Shown piece after piece: positions 2,053-11,422 of a DNA stretch of 11,422 nt. Within the stretch, counting starts at the first letter, position 1. The number at the start of each line of letters is the position of its first letter. The translations under genes were made by a program, and so were the position numbers. Under the pieces are notes generated by a model. It was not told the DNA's origin, searched no databases, and was given only the letters and a program-made list of their open reading frames with translations. Source of the DNA: a virus; the UHGV virus genome UHGV-2155131. The stretch is one strand, 5' to 3'.

Positions 2053-2460
2053 TCAGATGGTTTTCAGTATGCGATCGATGTCGCCGTCATCGCCCTGGTT
2101 TNNNNNNNNNNNNNNNNNNNNNNNNNNNNNNNNNNNNNNNNNNNNNNNNNNNNNNNNNNNNNNNNNNNNNNNNNNNNNNNNNNNNNNNNNNNNNNNNNGC
2201 TCTATGGTCATGTTCAGGATTTCACGAGCATTATCGACGCTAATACATGGCACGTTTGCCATTGCACGTAACAGCGGCTGATAGTCTTTATGCTCATGAA
2301 GCGCCATAATCGCATCAGCGCGCGGCTTGTCCTGCTCTTCCAGTTTGTTTAGTTGATATACGGCCTCATAGGTTGATAAACCTCTGTCAGCCATTGCCCG
2401 CGCTTCGGCTTTAAATTTACTCGCCAGCGGTAGCGTCATGATGCTTTCATTCGTTGCCAT
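2053..2460 (-). CDS. Hypothetical protein, last gene of capsid operon; reading frame spans an assembly gap
   Basis: Start at 2460 with a GGGGG motif and TAA-coupled spacing after the decoration gene. N-terminal 87 aa are real sequence. The C-terminal 15 aa and the terminator placement suggest the gene ends at 2053, but frame continuity across the N run is unverifiable. Confidence 0.45.
   Translation of the reverse strand: MATNESIMTLPLASKFKAEARAMADRGLSTYEAVYQLNKLEEQDKPRADAIMALHEHKDYQPLLRAMANVPCISVDNAREILNMTIEXXXXXXXXXXXXXXXXXXXXXXXXXXXXXXXXXNQGDDGDIDRILKTI
2102..2198. other. Assembly gap (97 N)
   Basis: Literal run of n in the sequence. Confidence 0.95.
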
Positions 2461-2472
2461 CGTTCCCCCTGC

Positions 2473-2808
2473 TTATCGGGCCAGCGGCTGAACGGATACG
2501 CCGGAACCCGCAAAGGCGGCGCATTTTTTCGCATCGGTGTCGACGCTCTCAGGCCAGTTAACGGCGGCAATATTGAATATCCCCGTCTTGTAACACTGTG
2601 CTGATTTCTGCTTTGACGTGTCCACAGGGTACGAGGTCAGATAAACAGCCTTGCCAGATTCCTTACCATCCCACGGCTTAAACTCGCCATTGTCCGCCAG
2701 CATCAGCGGGGTAAATTCCTGAATAACGCCAGCATCAGCGGCAAAATGTACCAGCGTCGTGGCGACCTGCTGACTGCCTGCAAATAACTCAATGTATGGA
2801 GTGTCCAT
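2473..2808 (-). CDS. Head decoration protein, lambda gpD-like
   Basis: 111 aa. Shares TPLML, WDG, YKxGxF, WPE and KKxAAFAG motifs in the same order as lambda gpD (recalled from memory). GGGGG Shine-Dalgarno motif 6 nt before ATG. Confidence 0.8.
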   Translation of the reverse strand: MDTPYIELFAGSQQVATTLVHFAADAGVIQEFTPLMLADNGEFKPWDGKESGKAVYLTSYPVDTSKQKSAQCYKTGIFNIAAVNWPESVDTDAKKCAAFAGSGVSVQPLAR

Positions 2809-2819
2809 AGAATCCCCCG

Positions 2820-3875
2820 TTAACCAATTTTGACGGTAACAAATTTGCGAATATCTGCCGGAACCGGCTGCGGTGCGCTGTGCGTCTGCACGTACTCAAT
2901 CGCCGGATCGCCGTCCTCAATCCAGTTTTTCGGGTAAAACATGTTTTGCGTTGCGCCCGTTCTTACTGCGTCCTGATCCATAATCGCACCATAGGCCACC
3001 AGCCCTTTATTGTTGGTGTTGCCCAGGACAAGCAAATCAGGCTCAAGGAAATATTTTTCTGTGCCGTCGCTGTCAGTGTATTTGCCGGAATAGACGATAA
3101 GGGCAATATCGCCCAGATAGCCTTTAAAGCTCACCACTTCGCCCAGGTTTTTACAGGCCAGCTCTGCGGCGGACTCTGAACCACGGGAAAGATCGTACAG
3201 CTCACGGAATTTTTTAAAGCTGCGTAACGTTCGCCATACCTCAGCGCCCATAATCATGACGTTTGCGGGGCAACCAGCCTGATCGGCGTATAGTTCGATA
3301 TCATAGATTGGATCGTGGGTTTCTTTGTCCTGCTCTGACCATTTTTTCCCGTCGGCCTGCTCTATGATGTTTTTTTCCGGTATCTTCCAGTCGATTTCAT
3401 AGCGCTCTATGCCTTCGCCTTCAATGATGTTTTTTCCGGTCGTTACCGCATTTACCGCCAGCCATTCCACGCGCGCTTTTATGGCGTTTATCTGGCGGCG
3501 CATATTGCCAGTAATCAGGCGCATACGGCGATAGGTAGGGTCGTTAAGCTGTGCCGGATCTTCTCCAGCCATGCGCATGATGGTTTTCGTTGGATCGATT
3601 TCGTGCTTTGGCTTCATGTAGCCAGGTTTAATCGTGCTGGTTTCGTACCCTTTATCGCGCTGAACCTGGCTACCCACCATAGGCGAACAAAACGCCGACA
3701 TGGTGACTTCTTCAATGTCCAGGGTATCCAGCATGATGTTTTGCGTGCTGAATGTCGCCACGTTCGGGAAAAACAGCGTGGTAAACAGCGGACTGAATTT
3801 AAATTCCGCAATATCCCCGCGATTCAGGTACGCAAAAAGCTGGTTAGTGTTAAGTGCCATTGCTTTTACTGTCAT
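2820..3875 (-). CDS. Major capsid protein, lambda gpE family
   Basis: 351 aa. Collinear with lambda gpE across the whole length (FKFxPLF, TPGYxKPKHE, DPxYRRxRxI, WSxxDKxTxDP, YSGxY, VLGNT, YPKNW, GDPA, SAP). Start overlaps the upstream stop (TAATG). Confidence 0.9.
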   Translation of the reverse strand: MTVKAMALNTNQLFAYLNRGDIAEFKFSPLFTTLFFPNVATFSTQNIMLDTLDIEEVTMSAFCSPMVGSQVQRDKGYETSTIKPGYMKPKHEIDPTKTIMRMAGEDPAQLNDPTYRRMRLITGNMRRQINAIKARVEWLAVNAVTTGKNIIEGEGIERYEIDWKIPEKNIIEQADGKKWSEQDKETHDPIYDIELYADQAGCPANVMIMGAEVWRTLRSFKKFRELYDLSRGSESAAELACKNLGEVVSFKGYLGDIALIVYSGKYTDSDGTEKYFLEPDLLVLGNTNNKGLVAYGAIMDQDAVRTGATQNMFYPKNWIEDGDPAIEYVQTHSAPQPVPADIRKFVTVKIG

Positions 3876-4081
3876 TATTCACCCCCGTGAACCTGATTCA
3901 TACCCAGCGCCGCGCGTAAATAGGCGCGTACCTGCCAGCCTGTTGACGGCTCAACCATCGCCAGCGGATCAAGTCCTGCCGCAATGCCTGCTTTTACGTT
4001 CTGCTGGTGGCGTTCCTTGAGCGCCTTCACGATGTCGGGGCTTATGTACACCGAAACACCGCCTTTTTTCTCTTCAGCCAT
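3875..4081 (-). CDS. Small hypothetical protein (68 aa) translationally coupled to the capsid gene; possible beta-strand/helix DNA-binding-like pattern
   Basis: AGAGGAA Shine-Dalgarno motif 9 nt upstream of ATG at 4081. TAATG overlap with the capsid gene start. Function not recognised. Confidence 0.5.
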   Translation of the reverse strand: MAEEKKGGVSVYISPDIVKALKERHQQNVKAGIAAGLDPLAMVEPSTGWQVRAYLRAALGMNQVHGGE

Positions 4082-4248
4082 AGTAAGAAATTCCTCTTTG
4101 ACTTAAAAAATCATAACTGGATGTTCATCCAGATCTGATTATAATCATGATTGCATTTTATGCAATGATGTTGAGTTGTGTTGCAAAATATGAAATGATG
4201 ATCCCGATCATGTGTGTCAGTGCACCAAAAAAAACCTCATATGCAAAA
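4082..4248 (-). promoter_or_regulatory. Putative late/capsid operon promoter region with palindromes
   Basis: AT-rich stretch between the bidirectional terminator and the first capsid-operon gene. Contains ctggatg-tt-catccag (4119..4134) and tgattataatca (4137..4148, includes a TATAAT-like hexamer). Confidence 0.35.
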
Positions 4249-4287
4249 GCCCGATAAGATGCCTCCTGTACTTATCGGGCTTTTTTT
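4249..4287 (+). terminator. Rho-independent terminator-like hairpin (gcccgataag ... cttatcgggc + T7)
   Basis: 10-bp perfect stem, 12-nt loop, T7 tail on the plus strand. May act bidirectionally together with the neighbouring hairpin. Confidence 0.5.
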
Positions 4288-4293
4288 GGGTAC

Positions 4294-4316
4294 AAAAAAG
4301 CCGGATTACTCCGGCT
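4294..4316 (-). terminator. Rho-independent terminator for the regulator / replication-side operon
   Basis: On the minus strand: hairpin gccgga-gtaat-ccggc then T6, 6 nt after the stop at 4322. Nearly identical to the terminator at 2025..2046. Confidence 0.55.
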
Positions 4317-4321
4317 GTTGA

Positions 4322-4594
4322 TTAGCTGTCTGGGTAATTACGCCATATTTCATCGCTTACACCATCTATACCCATTTCAGCATAAGTGCGATCTACTGCC
4401 TTTCTCAGGTCTCCGAAGTTATCCGGCGGCTCCGGTGGCTTCTGTGCCTTCCTGGAACATTCCAGCCGTCGCATCGTAACCTGATGCCGTTCCTTGTCTG
4501 TCTCCACCAGTTGCATGACTTCACCCCATCGTGCCGCCGCCCTCCGGTAAAAGCCTTTTGCCTCGAGTTCCTCCGCTATGCGGTCATGTACCAT
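4322..4594 (-). CDS. PerC-family transcriptional regulator-like protein
   Basis: Motif AEELEAKGFYRRAAARWGEVM resembles the conserved PerC/Pch core as I remember it. Preferred start is ATG 4594 with GAGGGGG upstream, directly after the SSB-tail stop. The ORF track extends to a GTG at 4714. Confidence 0.55.
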   Translation of the reverse strand: MVHDRIAEELEAKGFYRRAAARWGEVMQLVETDKERHQVTMRRLECSRKAQKPPEPPDNFGDLRKAVDRTYAEMGIDGVSDEIWRNYPDS

Positions 4595-4604
4595 CCTCAC
4601 CCCC

Positions 4605-4897
4605 TCAGAACGGAATATCATCACCGTAAGGGTCATCGCCTCCCGCTGGTGGCTGATTACCCTGTGTGCCTGTGGTCTTGCGTCTGTTCCCGCCAGGACG
4701 TGCCGCACGGGCACTGATTACGCTGTCTGCAATAACCTGATAACCCTGCCGCGTTTCCCCGTTCTGTCCGGTCCACTGGCTGATCTGCATGGCAAAGATA
4801 CCGCCATACGCGCCAGCGTCATCGGTGTACCCTTGCTGGTCTGTTTTACCTGCGGGTCGTCCACCAGCCGCCCGTAAGCGGCTATCTGTGCTGTCAT
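4605..4897 (-). pseudogene. SSB-like gene remnant in two frames: N-terminal OB-fold fragment (4718..4897) and C-terminal fragment ending in the DDIPF acidic tip (4605..4790)
   Basis: Frame A (MTAQIAAYGRLVDDPQVKQTSKGTPMTLARMAV...) resembles the SSB N-terminus. Frame B (...QISQWTGQNGETRQGYQVIAD...GGDDPYGDDIPF) resembles the SSB beta4-5 region and C-terminal tail. The frames overlap out of phase, about 40 aa of OB fold are missing, and no slippery heptamer was seen. Confidence 0.5.
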
Positions 4898-5172
4898 GAT
4901 TCCACCTCTCCGGTTTTAACGTTGATGGTTGTTACCTGTTCCGCTTCTGCAATCTCCCGCTCTGTCAGCGTGGCAAAGTTTGCCGCCGCCGTGGTCATGA
5001 ATGCGCTTATTAGTTCGGGATGTGCTTTCGAGTATCCTTCTCCCGCTGTGATGTCTATCACCTTTATAGCCACCTTTAAGGCGTGCTCTGTCATCTCCAG
5101 CGCTTTATATCTTGGTGCTGTTCTGTCTTTGCGTTTTTTGAGTGATTTGTTAAATCTTCCTGATGTGTGCAT
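4894..5172 (-). CDS. Hypothetical protein (92 aa)
   Basis: ORF starting next to the iterons. Its stop overlaps the SSB-like frame A start (ATGA). Function not recognised. Confidence 0.45.
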   Translation of the reverse strand: MHTSGRFNKSLKKRKDRTAPRYKALEMTEHALKVAIKVIDITAGEGYSKAHPELISAFMTTAAANFATLTEREIAEAEQVTTINVKTGEVES

Positions 5173-5220
5173 TTTTATTTTTACCCTCGTGTTTAAAAAG
5201 TTTTAGGTTGTGGTGCACCT

Positions 5221-5445
5221 CCTCTACCTCTCTACCTAATCATCTTTCATGTCAGTAATGGCGCGGCTTTCAGATGGGTAGAGGGCTTTCGTGGCCCTCT
5301 ACCCATCCTCTACCCGCCCCTCACAAACGATCTTAATCATGGTAGAAGAGGTAGAGAGGTTTTATTAGCCTTCTACCTAGCCCTCTACCCACTTATCATG
5401 TTGAATAATATGCGTTTATTTCATTCAGGTAGATTGGGTAGAGGG
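5221..5445. repeat. Iteron array; candidate replication origin downstream of the primase gene
   Basis: About 10 copies of CTCTACC / GGTAGAG in both orientations (e.g. 5222, 5230, 5276..5285, 5295..5304, 5307..5315, 5350, 5381..5390, 5436..5445), including the palindrome gggtagagggc-N7-gccctctaccc (5276..5304). Flanked by AT-rich stretches. Confidence 0.6.
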
Positions 5446-5458
5446 CTTTTACAAAAAA

Positions 5459-7207
5459 TTATAAAAACGCGTCACAATCATCAGTTGTAATTGCGTTGGT
5501 CTGCGTTACTCCCTTAACTCTCCGCGTAATATATTCATGTCCGTAAACTTTTGCCGCTGGCTTCATGGCCTTGCTGAACTCAGCCACGTTTAGCGGTTTG
5601 CTCCTGCCTGCGTATGCCATAAACGCCAGATAGACGCGGTAAAGGCTGTTTCTGGTCGTGTACTTCACGGAATCGCCACCGCCACCCATCATCAGGCCGC
5701 GAGCTTCCTCCAGAAAATTCAGGAACTGGCAAAACTCAATAACCGGATCCGTCTGTTGCTTTATCGCCAGTGCTTCATCACCGTCGCGCTGTTCCAGTAA
5801 TAAAGCCCGTGCCTTTTCAGGGTCGGCAAAATTAGCCAGCAAGCGACGGATAATTACGGGGATTTCAGCCGCGACCTTCTCCGGCAAATCCTTGTCTTTT
5901 TCGTCCTCCCTTACAATGTTGTCGAACCGGAAAATCACCCGACGGCGTGACACACCTCCGGCCCGCTCGGTGAATATCATCGGGTTATTGTTGGTAGCCA
6001 GCACCACCGCCCTGATTACCGCCGTAAAACGCTTCTCATATTTCGGGTTTATTTCCACTGGGTCGCCGCCCGTGATTTTCTTGATGCCCGTTCCTTCGCC
6101 TGTATATTTCGGCTGGTCAGCCAGGACGATAAGACGACTCCCGACAACCTGCGCACGTCCACCAGCATCATCAAGTGAGGTCATTTCAGCGCTTACCGTG
6201 TTCTGTTTCCCTGCCAGAAGGCTGGCTATGTGCGTGAATGTACTTTTACCGCTACCGCCCTCTCCGGTGGCCTCAATAAACATCTGCCAGTCGTACCGGT
6301 TCGCCATAATCATGTACAGCGCGGCACATATACGCATCATCTTGCGCGGGTCTTTTCCGGCTGCGTGCTCAAGCCATTTATGAAAGTTTGGCGCGTTGTC
6401 GCAGATATTCTCCCCTGGTGCTGGTGGCGTGTACTCAATGCCGTTGTGCGTGGTGATCCAGTTCTCCGGCGTGTGCGGGGAAAATTCCCCCGTTTTCAGG
6501 TCAAGCGCACCATTGGCGAACGGCAGCAAATCGCCGGACGGCTCCCCCATTGGTTCGGCAATAACTTTTAACGCTTCAACGGCGTTATTGATCACGCGTT
6601 TGCTAAAAGTGGCCCTGTGCTCTGAATAGATCGCCACCATTTCGCGGCTAAGTTCCATTGTGCTGACCGGACACCATACCCCGCCGCGCCATACGTGAAC
6701 GATTTCACTTTCCGGATGCACACAAACGCCATCAAATCGACCAGCAAGCATCTGTGCGCGCTCACTGTCTGCCATTTGTGCCAGTTGCGTATTTTTCTGC
6801 TCCGGCATGGTAAGCCCTGCGGCAATATTTTCACGCTCAGCATTCAGATAGCGCCGCCAGTTTTCACACTTCTGGACGTGCATTCCTTCGGGGTAAAAAT
6901 TTGCGTCCTGAATATCTGCCGCCGCCAGCTTCTGACCAATCTTTTTGGTCTCCACCAAATCCAGTTCTCCGGCCTGGTACAGCCTTACGCGTTTTTTTCC
7001 ATCCGGAACAATTTTCAGTGCATCAAGTTCGGCAAGCTGATTTGGCCCAAGCCACACAGGCGGCACATTATCGCCGGATGCGGGGCCATCCTGCTCCTGC
7101 CATTGTTTCGCGTGCGACCAGGCATCACTACCCGCGAAAATAATTACCTCTGTGTCTTTGTGTTTTATTCCGCGTGGCTGTTTTTTTACGTTCGGTGCCA
7201 GTTTCAT
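5459..7207 (-). CDS. P4-alpha-like primase / SF3 helicase replication protein
   Basis: 582 aa. Walker A motif GEGGSGKST mid-protein with a D5_N-like upstream region, typical of phage/plasmid primase P4-family C-terminal domains. GGGG motif before ATG; ATGA overlap with the upstream gene. Confidence 0.85.
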   Translation of the reverse strand: MKLAPNVKKQPRGIKHKDTEVIIFAGSDAWSHAKQWQEQDGPASGDNVPPVWLGPNQLAELDALKIVPDGKKRVRLYQAGELDLVETKKIGQKLAAADIQDANFYPEGMHVQKCENWRRYLNAERENIAAGLTMPEQKNTQLAQMADSERAQMLAGRFDGVCVHPESEIVHVWRGGVWCPVSTMELSREMVAIYSEHRATFSKRVINNAVEALKVIAEPMGEPSGDLLPFANGALDLKTGEFSPHTPENWITTHNGIEYTPPAPGENICDNAPNFHKWLEHAAGKDPRKMMRICAALYMIMANRYDWQMFIEATGEGGSGKSTFTHIASLLAGKQNTVSAEMTSLDDAGGRAQVVGSRLIVLADQPKYTGEGTGIKKITGGDPVEINPKYEKRFTAVIRAVVLATNNNPMIFTERAGGVSRRRVIFRFDNIVREDEKDKDLPEKVAAEIPVIIRRLLANFADPEKARALLLEQRDGDEALAIKQQTDPVIEFCQFLNFLEEARGLMMGGGGDSVKYTTRNSLYRVYLAFMAYAGRSKPLNVAEFSKAMKPAAKVYGHEYITRRVKGVTQTNAITTDDCDAFL

Positions 7208-7503
7208 TTTTTACCCCTGAATACGTTAAGCATCTTTTTTATTTCCTGAATATTGGCGCGTGCTTTCTCCCTGCTGGTGGGCACGTTACGCGGTACGGCC
7301 TGCACCAGAGAAAAATCACGATCGAACTGATAAACAGGCATCACGCAATCATATTCGTAGCCTTCACGACGGTAGGTTACGCGCCGTTCCTCCACGCCCT
7401 TAATCATTACCGTGCCGCCGTACTGGTCGCGGTAAATATCACCGCGCATGAATTTAGTGCGAGTTTTGCCACTGGCAGTTAAGCCAGAATATTTAAGTTT
7501 CAT
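7204..7503 (-). CDS. Hypothetical protein (99 aa), translationally coupled to primase
   Basis: ATG at 7503 with GGAG upstream. Stop overlaps the primase start. Confidence 0.5.
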   Translation of the reverse strand: MKLKYSGLTASGKTRTKFMRGDIYRDQYGGTVMIKGVEERRVTYRREGYEYDCVMPVYQFDRDFSLVQAVPRNVPTSREKARANIQEIKKMLNVFRGKK

Positions 7504-7508
7504 TATTT

Positions 7509-7739
7509 TTATTCTCCGGTGTGGGGCGCTTTATTATTCTCGTGAATTGCCATAGCCTTATTGAGTTCATCAATAACAGGTGTCAATAATGTCTGAACAG
7601 CGGCAAACATTAATGATGAATGATCTTCGCCACCTTCCGGCACTTCAATTAATTTAATTAATAACGCATTCATTTCGCGTGCTTTAATTAATGCGTTTTC
7701 AGAGTGGATTAATACTTCAAAAGGGATTTTATGCATCAC
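7509..7739 (-). CDS. Small hypothetical protein (about 75 aa) in a low-GC segment
   Basis: GGGAG Shine-Dalgarno motif before a GTG (7739) / ATG (7736) start. Helical, acidic composition. Confidence 0.5.
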   Translation of the reverse strand: MMHKIPFEVLIHSENALIKAREMNALLIKLIEVPEGGEDHSSLMFAAVQTLLTPVIDELNKAMAIHENNKAPHTGE

Positions 7740-7959
7740 AAATTTTCTCCCTTATTCTTTTAATGTCCTCATTAAGGATGTCTGTAACTTTTATCAGCGA
7801 GTTTTTGGCAATTATTTTTATTGTTTTAAGTTTTCTTTTGTCGTGCTCCGACTGTGATTTTCTTTCCATAATCTCCACCATGTGGGTAACATCAACGAGC
7901 GCACGTATCAGTATTTGCATTGCTTCTTCTGCTGCGTCCGGACGGGTGTTATTGCACAT
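7729..7959 (-). CDS. Small hypothetical protein (76 aa) in a low-GC segment
   Basis: Strong AGGAGG Shine-Dalgarno motif 6 nt before ATG 7959. 11-nt overlap with the downstream gene. Confidence 0.55.
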   Translation of the reverse strand: MCNNTRPDAAEEAMQILIRALVDVTHMVEIMERKSQSEHDKRKLKTIKIIAKNSLIKVTDILNEDIKRIREKICDA

Positions 7960-8155
7960 GGCACACCTCCTGACGAATACGGGCAGCGAATACCATCACG
8001 CAGCCAGCCGGGGATTGCTGGCGTGCTTCCTGTTCGCTGGTGGCCTCGATGGTAATCACGCGCGGTTGTGCCGTGCTCAGGGCGATAAAACGCCAGATGT
8101 ATTTATTCAGGTCGTGCGAGTCCCGCCCTTGCGGGTGTGTGGTATGATTTCTCAT
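7949..8155 (-). CDS. Small hypothetical protein (68 aa), probable first gene of the leftward replication operon
   Basis: Internal ATG at 8155 with GAGG 6 nt upstream. Protein-like translation (MRNHTTHPQGRDSHDLNKYIWRFIALS...). Same frame as the long 439-codon ORF. Confidence 0.4.
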   Translation of the reverse strand: MRNHTTHPQGRDSHDLNKYIWRFIALSTAQPRVITIEATSEQEARQQSPAGCVMVFAARIRQEVCHVQ

Positions 8156-9268
8156 AGCTGCCTCGATACTTTCGCTATCGTTGGTGGTTAGAAGCCCGGT
8201 TAGTGTTAGCGCACTGCCGGGTTTCGTCGTTTCTGCACCTTGCGCCAACAAGGTGTTGAACACCAATTTAAACCCAGGTGTTAAACACGTCAAGTGTTGA
8301 ACACTTATTTTTTTTCCTGCATACTGCATTTGTTTTTTATGAGGGGTACACCACATGGCGACAAAAGCAGTAAACGCAAAATCACAAACCGTTGCGGCAA
8401 GGGTTCCGCATGAAGTTATGAACAATGTTGAGGCGGTAAAAATGCCTGGCGAAAGTACGGGGCAATTTGTTACTGCGGCATTAAAACGAGAAGTTGAATA
8501 TCGCCAGCGGCGCAAGGCCAGTGAATCCGAGAAATCATTAATCACGTCATAACATGAAGAACGATGGCGATAATCATAGGAGTAAAAGATGTTAAAATTA
8601 AAAAAACATGTACCAATGATGGTTGCTTTAATTATCACAATCTTTCTCTTAATATCATGCTTTGAGAAAAATAGTCTTTGCTCAAACGATAAGGGCGATT
8701 TATTACGGCGTGCTTGCGATGTAGAGTTGAAAAAAAGTTGAGCACTACCTAACCGAGACAATGCCGTAGTTCCTGTAATCACAGGATCGCTCAGGCTTTG
8801 CCCACCAGCCGCAAATATGGCATTGTTGGCAATGCTCATGCGTTGGGGATAACGTGTAGCTTGTGTCGAGGGGCCACCGTAGCGGGTGGCCTTTGTTTTG
8901 CCCGTTATTCGGCAATTGTGGCGCTTCTCCACATGGTTGATATAATCCCACTGCTCAGATTCATTTTTTGCGCAGTAGGTTAATTGTTCACAAAGGCGCT
9001 CCGGCAACGGGGCGCTTTTTGTTTTTATTAGTTTGTAGAAACCTGACTCAGAGATAATGCTCATATTCTGATTGCCGTCAGGGGTGTAAGTTAAATTTAC
9101 TCCCTTTTTATCATCAAACATCTGCAACGCTCTGGCGTTAACAATATTGGTTTCACTCCCGCCAGTAAGGCCGGAAATAACCGGAATAATTTCGGCAAAA
9201 TTTTGCAGATTCTGTTTTTCAGGACGAACGAAGCCCCGCCCTTGTTCGGGAGAATATCCAGTATTCAT
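7949..9268 (-). CDS. Bro-N domain (antirepressor-like) protein; only the N-terminal ~175 aa (about 8745..9268) is recognisable and the 3' extent is uncertain
   Basis: DGNQNMSIISESGFYKLI...LPERL matches the Bro-N core motif (NMNIINESGLYSLI). The frame then runs stop-free for about 800 nt through low-complexity translation, antisense to the RHH gene and the operators. Confidence 0.45.
   Translation of the reverse strand: MNTGYSPEQGRGFVRPEKQNLQNFAEIIPVISGLTGGSETNIVNARALQMFDDKKGVNLTYTPDGNQNMSIISESGFYKLIKTKSAPLPERLCEQLTYCAKNESEQWDYINHVEKRHNCRITGKTKATRYGGPSTQATRYPQRMSIANNAIFAAGGQSLSDPVITGTTALSRLGSAQLFFNSTSQARRNKSPLSFEQRLFFSKHDIKRKIVIIKATIIGTCFFNFNIFYSYDYRHRSSCYDVINDFSDSLALRRWRYSTSRFNAAVTNCPVLSPGIFTASTLFITSCGTLAATVCDFAFTAFVAMWCTPHKKQMQYAGKKISVQHLTCLTPGFKLVFNTLLAQGAETTKPGSALTLTGLLTTNDSESIEAAMRNHTTHPQGRDSHDLNKYIWRFIALSTAQPRVITIEATSEQEARQQSPAGCVMVFAARIRQEVCHVQ
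8253..8304. promoter_or_regulatory. Three operator-like inverted repeats GTGTTNAACAC within divergent promoters
   Basis: Copies at 8253..8263, 8278..8288 and 8294..8304. Rightward promoter candidate: -35 TTGAAC (8297..8302) and -10 CATACT (8320..8325). Leftward candidate: -35 TTGACG (complement of 8288..8293) and -10 TAAATT (complement of 8265..8270). Confidence 0.5.
8355..8552 (+). CDS. Ribbon-helix-helix-like small DNA-binding protein (putative island repressor/regulator)
   Basis: GAGGGG Shine-Dalgarno motif 8 nt before ATG. N-terminal beta-strand with alternating hydrophobics (TVAARVPHEV) followed by two helices, as in Arc/CopG-type proteins. Diverges from the operator region. Confidence 0.5.
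   Translation: MATKAVNAKSQTVAARVPHEVMNNVEAVKMPGESTGQFVTAALKREVEYRQRRKASESEKSLITS
8589..8666 (+). CDS. Candidate 25-aa cationic/hydrophobic peptide (MLKLKKHVPMMVALIITNLSLNIML) downstream of the RHH gene
   Basis: Canonical AGGAG 6 nt upstream of ATG. Below the ORF-track size cutoff. Composition resembles small membrane peptides. Translated by hand. Confidence 0.25.
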
Positions 9269-9320
9269 GGTTAGATCTCTGTATTAGTGGATGGGTGGCG
9301 GCTGTGTGCCGCCAGCCTGA

Positions 9321-9509
9321 TTAGTGAACTGCCTCGCAGCTGTCCTTCCATGCCAGAACTTCGGATAAAGACCAGCCAACGGAACGACCGCCCAGCTTAC
9401 GCCGTGATGGGAATTGTCCGGCTTTTTCCAGGCGGTACCGACATGAGCGGCTCAGGCCTGTAAGTTGCTGACATTCTTTTTCACGTATAAAGCGATCTGT
9501 GCTTAACAC
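9321..9509 (-). CDS. alpA: AlpA-family phage transcriptional regulator / excisionase-like protein
   Basis: 62 aa with the LxxxxRSVGWxxSEVxxW signature of AlpA-type winged-helix proteins. Located between int and the rest of the island, as in PICIs and P4-like elements. Confidence 0.8.
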   Translation of the reverse strand: MLSTDRFIREKECQQLTGLSRSCRYRLEKAGQFPSRRKLGGRSVGWSLSEVLAWKDSCEAVH

Positions 9510-9790
9510 AATTCCCCCTTTGTTGTTTCTTAAAGAGTCATTGGGTGGATTATTGGGTTGGGTTGTGTCGGATTGTGTCAGGGTGTTTGTGGAATGGCAA
9601 ACACTGGCGGCGGTCGTTTTACAGAAGCAGGGGGAATGAGAATAAAAACTCTTTTAATTCATTATGATGCAAAGGCATAAAATTTTACTTTTACGCCTTT
9701 TTTACATATTTTTAAGAGTGATTCGCCAGTGTATAAAAAAACAGTACACCTATAAAAATCAAATGGTTATTACGATGGCTGATTTTTAAC

Positions 9791-9850
9791 CCGTTGTTCC
9801 ATTTTGTTCCTTGTTGTTCGTCGTTGTGTCTCGTTGTTTCACGTTGTCCG
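9791..9850. repeat. Six tandem 10-bp repeats (NCGTTGTNYC) just 3' of int, in the alpA upstream region
   Basis: ccgttgttcc / attttgttcc / ttgttgttcg / tcgttgtgtc / tcgttgtttc / acgttgtccg in helical phase. Confidence 0.5.
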
Positions 9851-9874
9851 CATCCTGAAAAATCGCAAAAAAAA

Positions 9875-11125
9875 TTATATTTCTCTGGCTATTGGCAATG
9901 TGGTTACGTTTTCATGTGTTCCCGCCAGTATCCCTAACCGCTCCGTCCACATATCCAGCGCGTCACGTTTCGCATCCAGATAACGGGAATGGTTATAGAC
10001 TCGTTGCATCCCTGGCATCTGATGACCTGTAAGCTGCTCCACGACGTGAGGATCCACGCCTAAATCGTTCAGCATCGTTGTAAAGGTGCGCCGGATGTCA
10101 TGCAGTGACCAGTGAGGGTGTTTTAGCCTCCTGTGCGCTAATCTACCGTACTGCGACACGCTTGTTTCCTGTTTCACTTCCCCCAGCAATAAGCCCGTGT
10201 GCCTGTTCTGCTCCACCAGCTGCGTGACGAACGGCAGTATTGCTTCCGGTATGGGCCGGAATATTGCCACCTTCGTTTTGCTGTGTTCTTTCGGCACGGT
10301 CCAGAGCATTTCGGTAAAATCCCACTCGCTGATCTCCGATAACCTCAGTTCTACCGTCCGGCATCCGAAAACAATCAGGAGGCGGATTAGTGCGACGTAG
10401 TAAGGGGAAAATATTTTTTTGTCCAGTGCCTGCAATAATTCGCCAAGTTCTTTGGTGCTTAAGACACGCTCGCTTATATCCGGTTTTTTCCCAACGTCCG
10501 CCACACTCATATCATCAAGAACGTTGCTGATTGCATAGCGCCGCCTCCGGCAGAACTTAAGCGCCTGTTTGCACGTCTGTAGCAAGAATCCGGCAGTAAC
10601 AGGCGTTCGCTTTGCCACCTGGTCAAAACAGGCCAGCCAGTGCCGTAGCTCGCATTTATCCAGCGGCATAGCACCAATGTGCTGTATTACGTGATTATTA
10701 AGGCGCTTTTTCAGGGCGGCATAATCCACGCGGTTTTCCTTTGCGTACGACTCAAGCCAGTAGGTGAGCGCATCGCCAACCGTTACCGGCTTTAACGCTT
10801 CCTGTACGGTGTAATTAAGCTCATGACGTGGATTTTTCCCCTCTGCCAGCCATGCGCGACACTGGGCGGCTTTTTCCCTGGCTGATTTCAGGCTCAGATC
10901 AGGATAATTTCCCAGCTTAATGCGTTCCGGTGGTGCCCCCCTTCCCGTTCCGGCCCTGTAAGTGAAATACCAGGTTAAAAGGCCACTGGTTGAATGCCTG
11001 ACGCTCAGGTTTCCACCGTCATTAAGAAAGGCTGTTTTTTGGGCGGGTGTGCCGTTGATTTTCCTCAGCTGTGTATCGCTCAGTTTGTTAAGTGCTCTGC
11101 TCATAATTTTGATTCCGGTCATCAC
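9875..11125 (-). CDS. int: P4-family tyrosine integrase
   Basis: About 410 aa. N-terminal arm-binding-like region (LSDTQLRK...GGNLSVRHSTSG...WYFTYR) and C-terminal catalytic region with an HxxRRT-like motif (LHDIRRTF). The 11125 start is GTG; ATG alternatives at 11122 and 11104. Confidence 0.9.
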   Translation of the reverse strand: MMTGIKIMSRALNKLSDTQLRKINGTPAQKTAFLNDGGNLSVRHSTSGLLTWYFTYRAGTGRGAPPERIKLGNYPDLSLKSAREKAAQCRAWLAEGKNPRHELNYTVQEALKPVTVGDALTYWLESYAKENRVDYAALKKRLNNHVIQHIGAMPLDKCELRHWLACFDQVAKRTPVTAGFLLQTCKQALKFCRRRRYAISNVLDDMSVADVGKKPDISERVLSTKELGELLQALDKKIFSPYYVALIRLLIVFGCRTVELRLSEISEWDFTEMLWTVPKEHSKTKVAIFRPIPEAILPFVTQLVEQNRHTGLLLGEVKQETSVSQYGRLAHRRLKHPHWSLHDIRRTFTTMLNDLGVDPHVVEQLTGHQMPGMQRVYNHSRYLDAKRDALDMWTERLGILAGTHENVTTLPIAREI

Positions 11126-11151
11126 AATTAACTACACCATTAACTACACCG
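11126..11151. repeat. Right copy of 26-bp direct repeat; putative attR core, immediately upstream of the integrase start
   Basis: Exact match to 147..172. P4-family integrases classically have their att core just upstream of int. Confidence 0.7.
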
Positions 11152-11352
11152 ATCGTTGCACAAAGGGCTACAACGTGAAACAAGCTGGAACAAGGAAAAT
11201 CACAAATCTGTTTATAATCAAAAACATAATGAACAATCTGAAACATTATGAAACGGCAAAAAACACTAATTGATAAAATATGCCCATACTTCACGCATTA
11301 CGTTAAGCATCCGTTATAATCGGTTGCAGATACCAGCCTGTGGATGCTTAAC

Positions 11353-11422
11353 ATGGAATACCAACTCACTCTTAACTGGCCCGATTTTCTTGAACGTCAC
11401 TGGCAGAAACGCCCGGTGGTGT
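11353..11422 (+). CDS. roxA: 5' end of a chromosomal roxA (ycfD)-like gene, partial
   Basis: Translation MEYQLTLNWPDFLERHWQKRPVV matches my memory of the E. coli YcfD/RoxA N-terminus. Lies outside the right direct repeat. Confidence 0.55.
   Translation, partial: MEYQLTLNWPDFLERHWQKRPVV

Follow-up and report, generated by a model that had tools for sequence, protein, structure and literature searches.

The interval 4605-4897 of UHGV virus genome UHGV-2155131 very probably holds a pseudogene, namely the remains of an accessory island ssb gene that is itself dispensable. Throughout, we refer to the whole stretch of DNA that was analysed, 11,422 nucleotides in length, as the window, and we number positions from its first letter. 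The earlier note on this DNA had proposed two alternatives for the interval: a decaying ssb gene, or else a mini-protein or decoy of the SSB tail. The first of these is borne out by the intact synteny of the locus, by the deletion of the core of the gene, and by recurrent lesions of the same gene in other islands, whereas for the second we find no positive evidence. As expected of a pseudogene, the locus has intact, syntenic orthologues that read in a single frame, and it carries a reproducible lesion that removes essential parts of the protein.

The sequence of events that we propose is as follows. The replication module of a PICI of the EcCICFT073 type would normally run from primase/rep through an iteron ori to orf92, ssb and perC. 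A slipped-strand deletion between ATGCAG repeats would have removed nt 108-225 of ssb, that is, residues 38-75, and shifted the frame by one base. Ribosomes that begin at the native start, which is translationally coupled, would then make a 59-aa product that presumably lacks an OB fold, while the DDIPF tail would lie in a frame reachable only via internal initiation at Met76, which is predicted to be weak. The loss of ssb was probably tolerated, if the replicon of this island, too, needs only rep, ori and host factors, and the broken allele would later have passed between island backbones through recombination or transfer.

The ssb remnant and its deletion

The interval extends exactly from the stop codon of one reading frame, ORF-C, to the ATG of another, ORF-N (Table 1). 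The earlier note had described two overlapping, out-of-phase SSB-like frames, the second of which ends in DDIPF, and both are present exactly as described. ORF-N reads MTAQIAAYGRLVDDPQVKQTSKGTPMTLARMAVSLPC and then RSASGPDRTGKRGRVIRLLQTA, ORF-C reads MQISQWTGQNGETRQGYQVIADSVISARAARPGGNRRKTTGTQGNQPPAGGDDPYGDDIPF, and the two overlap out of phase at 4718-4790. ORF-C ends in GDDIPF, as does the intact orthologue, which fits the SSB-Ct pattern D-(D/E)-x-P-F, and has no DNA-binding domain attached. Against the Pfam SSB family PF00436 (cut-off 26 bits) ORF-N reaches a sub-threshold 16.3 bits, and ORF-C alone gives no Pfam match. Because a 118-nt deletion separates the frames, the remnant does not hold a complete OB fold (about 100 residues), linker and tip in any one frame.

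Table 1. Features of the window, followed by four lesions of the same gene in other loci (positions of the latter are those of the locus named).
Feature	Position	Strand	Description
ssb remnant (probable pseudogene)	4605..4897	(-)	293-bp leftover of the 411-bp island SSB gene, by alignment to intact genes
ORF-N	4718-4897	(-)	59 aa; SSB residues 1-37, then 22 out-of-frame residues and a TAA stop
ORF-N, SSB part	4787-4897	(-)	residues 1-37, strands beta1-beta2
ORF-C	4605-4790	(-)	61 aa; Met76-Phe136 of intact SSB except V78I; beta4-beta5 hairpin with W88 equivalent, short linker (~30 residues), acidic tip
DDIPF tip (SSB-Ct motif) codons	4608..4622	(-)	stop codon at 4605-4607
Deletion junction	4785..4790	(-)	single remaining copy of ATGCAG, from alignments
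orf92	4894..5172	(-)	upstream of ssb in the same operon; TGA stop overlaps the ssb ATG (ATGA)
perC-family regulator gene	4322..4594	(-)	directly downstream of ssb; Pfam PerC 151.8 bits; own strong SD
Intrinsic-terminator-like hairpin and T-run	4299..4316	(-)	ends the orf92-ssb-perC unit
Iteron field	5215..5450		GGTAGAGG / CCTCTACC, at least 10 copies in both orientations; between primase stop and orf92
Primase/replicase	5459..7207	(-)	intact; D5_N + DUF5906
AlpA	9321-9509	(-)	65.8 bits
Integrase	9875-11125	(-)	
P0041, in L013	1501-1704		16-nt insertion, GCCATGCA in three copies rather than one; at least 24 contigs
P0051, in L015	1501-1800		in-frame deletion between CAGCCAG repeats; 99 aa, tail retained; 2 contigs
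P0036, in L017	1501-1695		deletion between CGTTGCCA repeats; 2 contigs
P0035, in L018	1501-1731		deletion between AGGCGACGTT repeats; an IS66-family element had already entered this island; 2 contigs

Aligned with two intact genes (L001, 6306-6716, and L002, 1809-2219), the window shows a single 118-nt gap with about 98% identity on either side. The gap corresponds to nt 108-225 of the 411-nt ssb, with the loss of residues 38-75, and residues 1-37 of ORF-N are identical to those of the intact protein. Since 118 = 3 x 39 + 1, the deletion splits the frames. The alignment to SSB that the earlier note had proposed as a means of defining the deletion and frameshift thus resolves the damage into one gap and a one-base shift, and the roughly 40 OB-fold residues that were said to be missing number 38. 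In intact alleles of the UPEC-455U/L002 type, the hexamer ATGCAG occurs twice, 118 nt apart, at nt 108-113 (P36-C37-S38) and at nt 226-231 (M76-Q77), and the window retains one copy of this 6-nt direct repeat. The lesion bears the signature of a slipped-strand, microhomology-mediated deletion.

We also aligned the intact island protein with the sequence of E. coli SSB. Residues W48 and F54 of the island protein align to W54 and F60 of E. coli SSB, which are the base-stacking residues in the crystal structure of SSB with ssDNA, and both fall within the deleted 38-75. The deletion also removes beta3, the helix and beta4; only the equivalent of W88 survives, in ORF-C. Neither the ORF-N product nor the ORF-C product should therefore be able to form an OB fold.

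Other readings of the interval were considered as well. A programmed -1 frameshift that joins ORF-N to ORF-C was rejected: the overlap contains only the non-canonical G_GGG_AAA, and a fusion would still be without the OB core. Nothing supports the antisense, plus-strand ORFs at 4578-4877 and 4484-4717, which lie opposite the conserved SSB frame, and an Rfam scan of the window returned no RNA family.

The intact gene and its island

We searched 5,426 complete E. coli genomes with a 901-bp query that spans orf92, ssb and perC. The locus is matched in 1,276 of these genomes, 674 of them with at least 80% query coverage, and the best matches always consist of two aligned pieces over about 1,020 bp, with a feature annotated 'single-stranded DNA-binding protein'. 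The intact gene is one 411-bp frame of 136 aa (in S1-CAM-02-A, UPEC-455U and CFT073), whose product is WP_000126698.1 or WP_000126693.1; in CFT073 the orthologue is C_RS06995 (WP_000126698.1, 136 aa), of the PICI EcCICFT073. In related islands intact ssb follows the primase gene and is flanked by a small ORF and a perC-family gene, and the intact order primase – iteron ori – orf92 – ssb – perC recurs in hundreds of E. coli genomes. The earlier note had suggested a comparison with orthologous islands, in which an unrelated protein might have been found at this place; what they hold at the syntenic position is a single-frame, 136-aa SSB.

The intact protein scores 62.4 bits on PF00436, and it matches solved SSB structures over the whole OB fold, with the match to Thermus SSB reaching the terminal PF. 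The DDIPF tail is thus not a fortuitous match, as had been allowed for, but is inherited from a real SSB. The exact intact protein occurs on at least 1000 contigs, and in diverged alleles of the island SSB the tip is kept in the variants NIPF, DIPF and GIPF.

By its gene content, the window is a Gram-negative PICI of the EcCICFT073 type, about 11 kb in length. It contains an integrase, AlpA, and a primase/rep gene with an adjacent iteron ori; it contains no lysis or tail genes, and it lies at a specific chromosomal site. The iteron field is likely the island ori, and its position agrees with the rep-ori layout of EcCICFT073 (PMC6092414). The window also encodes a DUF4222 protein together with lambda E-like capsid and D-like decoration genes, and its integrase end shares 99% identity with the CFT073 island. 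The gene orf92 is syntenic in all related islands and belongs to no Pfam family.

Two further observations concern the island as a whole. A perfect 26-nt direct repeat, AATTAACTACACCATTAACTACACCG, composed of two 13-nt units, is found at both island ends (147-172 and 11126-11151, beside the integrase start) and again close to either end of the CFT073 island; a role as an att-associated repeat or as an arm-type site of the integrase is possible. A 439-aa ORF at 7949-9268 (-) has no Pfam match and is present in all deletion carriers at the roxA site. In the corresponding stretch the CFT073 island has instead several small genes, some of them on the opposite strand, and the 439-aa ORF may not be a real gene.

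The assembly of the window deserves a separate comment. A run of 97 Ns lies at 2103-2199, within a 135-aa ORF (2053-2460, (-)). Identity to the deletion-bearing islands ends exactly at this run, and the sequence to its left resembles other islands. The two flanks of the window come from different loci: positions 1-80 are the K-12 yljB/clpS spacer, and positions 11276-11422 are the 5' end of roxA and the roxA-phoQ spacer. Probably, scaffolding has joined contigs of two resident PICIs in the window; were the join real, a tandem duplication of about 265 kb would have its junction here.

Spread of the deletion allele and recurrence of lesions

The exact 59-aa product of ORF-N is present in a collection of 15 billion proteins, where 24 or more contigs carry it (they stem from assemblies in NCBI, ENA and Logan, of isolates as well as metagenomes), and two near-identical variants of it are in the same collection. 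One strain with the deletion is GCA_029122295.1. The seven further loci that we fetched (L003-L009) match the 293-bp remnant of the window at 100% identity. Over positions 4000-11422, the aligned parts of the carriers depart from the window at 0-2 nt. Because the remnant is identical, and the surrounding 7 kb nearly so, among the carriers, the comparison indicates that the deletion arose once, and recently.

The remaining differences between carriers and the window cluster at 2200-4000, in the capsid region. There, the capsid and decoration genes of the window show some 70-90 substitutions relative to the other deletion carriers, alongside the adjacent 7 kb that are nearly identical. A local excess of divergence such as this is the mark of a recombination tract, and it illustrates the mosaicism of these islands.

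The deletion allele occurs on two island backbones. The first lies at the roxA/phoQ site and has a 409-aa integrase (L004, L006, L007 and L009); the second lies at the cspD/clpS site and has a 407- or 412-aa integrase, AlpA and a 239-aa protein (L003 and L005). The integrases and regulatory modules of the two backbones are unrelated, and yet the backbones have in common a block of 6,952 nt at 99.7% identity, outside of which the flanking DNA is unrelated or only 80% identical. Since two backbones share this near-identical block, the broken module must have been exchanged between islands after the deletion had arisen. Two of the backbone loci come from metagenome assemblies, which makes a chimera conceivable, though an unlikely one given that on each contig both chromosomal flanks belong to one site.

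Outside of the isolate, ENA and Logan assemblies found by the exact-protein look-up, the deletion allele is rare. The junction is found in none of the 5,426 complete E. coli genomes, whether by exact 41-nt megablast or by 50-nt blastn. The pattern TTGCCATGCAGNTCAGCCAGTGGAC was not found in IMG/VR viral contigs, nor was the shorter pattern GCCATGCAGNTCAGCCAGTGGAC in GTDB species representatives or JGI metagenome contigs. One protein in the cluster of the 59-aa product, P0003, which is encoded on a 5.15-Mb NCBI contig, has the same C37|R junction followed by an out-of-frame tail that matches a diverged ssb allele, and when it is read in the SSB frame its changes are mostly synonymous. Either the same deletion has happened twice, or recombination has taken place downstream of the junction.

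A protein search with ORF-N returned many truncated products of the same gene, four of which we checked at the DNA level (last rows of Table 1). The repeats involved are direct repeats of 7-10 nt in the deletions, and a unit of 8 nt in the expansion. The other lesions are known at the protein level only. Four 98-aa products of diverged alleles (P0034, P0037, P0038 and P0039) leave the SSB frame at one point beside an A5 run, which looks like a 1-nt slip, with the reservation that some of these products are confined to one or two contigs and may reflect errors of sequencing. Further frameshifted products are P0040, P0044, P0045, P0068 and P0071, and P0043 is a 71-aa in-frame deletion that retains the tail. 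As read from these sequences, the centre of island ssb is a hot spot of slippage, with independent lesions that are mostly of the slippage type. The tail remains in frame in about two of 16 distinct lesions (P0043 and P0051), which is below the one third expected by chance, and we therefore see no sign of selection for tail retention.

Competing explanations and known systems

Apart from the loss of a dispensable gene, three other explanations can be given for these observations. One of them is that the lesion is an artefact of sequencing or assembly and that ssb is intact in the real genome. The source assembly is indeed not clean, as its N gap and hybrid flanks attest; but the N run lies 2.4 kb away from the ssb remnant, and the identical junction and 59-aa product recur in independent assemblies of isolates and metagenomes, on 24 contigs or more, which leaves an artefact next to no probability. 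It is less far-fetched, though still improbable, that the loss itself was selected: the island SSB may be costly in some hosts, for instance those with an SSB-sensing defence such as Retron-Eco8, in which case null alleles would be favoured and the leftover ORFs would be by-products. Phage SSB proteins are known to activate Retron-Eco8 (PMC13402713; bioRxiv 10.1101/2022.08.27.505566), and there are many independent inactivating lesions, two of which are each found on at least 24 contigs. Set against this are the intact alleles, which far outnumber the broken ones (at least 1000 contigs for the intact protein, and the locus in 1,276 of 5,426 genomes), and the short direct repeats, which alone account for the recurrence of lesions. 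Two facts could be held against a pseudogene: the island otherwise looks intact, and the broken allele occurs on two backbones, which is compatible with a neutral pseudogene and with a selected allele alike.

The remaining explanation, which we regard as very unlikely, is that ORF-C is translated from Met76 as a free SSB tail that competes for SSB-interacting proteins (chi, PriA, RecQ, ExoI and others) and thereby alters the replication of helper or host. ORF-C is open, begins with ATG, retains the linker and the GDDIPF tip, and lies in an operon with a strong neighbouring gene, and the allele persists in two island backbones. Its start is preceded by a weak SD-like GGCGG, 10 nt upstream (-15 to -11), whose pairing with the anti-SD (dG -6.1 kcal/mol) resembles that of the genuine starts with the weakest pairing in the window (-6.0 to -6.6), perC being far stronger at -12.1 kcal/mol. 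This point counts against a plain pseudogene, as some translation of the tail ORF is possible. The 10-nt spacing is long, however, a small hairpin takes up the motif in its 3' arm, and the start falls within the translated ORF-N, so that internal initiation at Met76 is possible but should be weak. Also adverse to a decoy are the scarcity of in-frame tails among the independent lesions and the rarity of the allele, absent from every one of the 5,426 complete genomes. The monomeric tip peptide of SSB binds its partners weakly, with micromolar affinity, and a decoy would thus have to be highly expressed. The invariance of the remnant among carriers makes conservation neutral for either side. Slightly more doubtful still is the full form of the proposal, in which the deletion created a new gene, with a junction-borne ATG from which a peptide of SSB linker plus tip is made that titrates SSB-interacting proteins during induction of the helper phage. 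If true, this would be the first natural, genetically encoded SSB-tail decoy on a phage satellite; the literature that we searched yielded no natural, genetically encoded free SSB-tail decoy.

The pseudogene is a broken copy of an accessory gene that is already known and annotated, and its island belongs to a familiar class of E. coli phage satellites. The rep and ori of EcCICFT073 alone replicate in E. coli DH5alpha (PMC6092414), and since these suffice, the island SSB lies outside the minimal replicon. We found no paper in the PICI literature on the role of the intact island SSB. What the present locus adds is that a satellite-encoded SSB is evidently dispensable, in that it has been broken repeatedly at a cluster of short direct repeats while a broken allele has still moved between backbones, and this dispensability fits the published sufficiency of rep and ori. 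There is a practical consequence as well: annotation pipelines will call both leftover ORFs small hypothetical proteins, and these should be flagged as fragments. By itself the remnant carries little weight, and it becomes interesting only if the tail-bearing fragment proves to be expressed and active.

Among known systems, the closest are the SSB of EcCICFT073 and orthologues of the EDL933 O-island-51 type, which occupy the same island position as the window copy and share about 98% DNA identity with it flanking the gap. Residues 1-37 and 76-136 of the EcCICFT073 SSB are those of the window remnant, except for V78I. The window copy differs from the EcCICFT073 gene in that it is without nt 108-225 and is frameshifted, and in that both of its ORFs fall short of the Pfam SSB threshold. 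The chromosomal SSB of E. coli (178 aa; 1EYG, 1EQQ, 4MZ9) is more distant: its OB fold aligns with that of the intact island SSB at 26% identity. The island protein has the equivalents of W54, F60 and W88, ends in DDIPF where the chromosomal protein ends in DDDIPF, and, at 136 aa in total, has a much shorter linker. Compared with E. coli SSB, the window remnant has lost beta3, the helix and beta4, and according to the alignment an OB fold or tetramer should be impossible. Synthetic SSB-Ct peptides, which serve in vitro as competitors of the interactions between SSB and its partners, have the same acidic-hydrophobic tip as the putative ORF-C product. Finally, the slipped-strand deletion pseudogenes of prophages and genomic islands resemble the window copy in that the deletion ends in repeats of which one copy is retained; the remnant is a textbook example of this class, with no notable difference.
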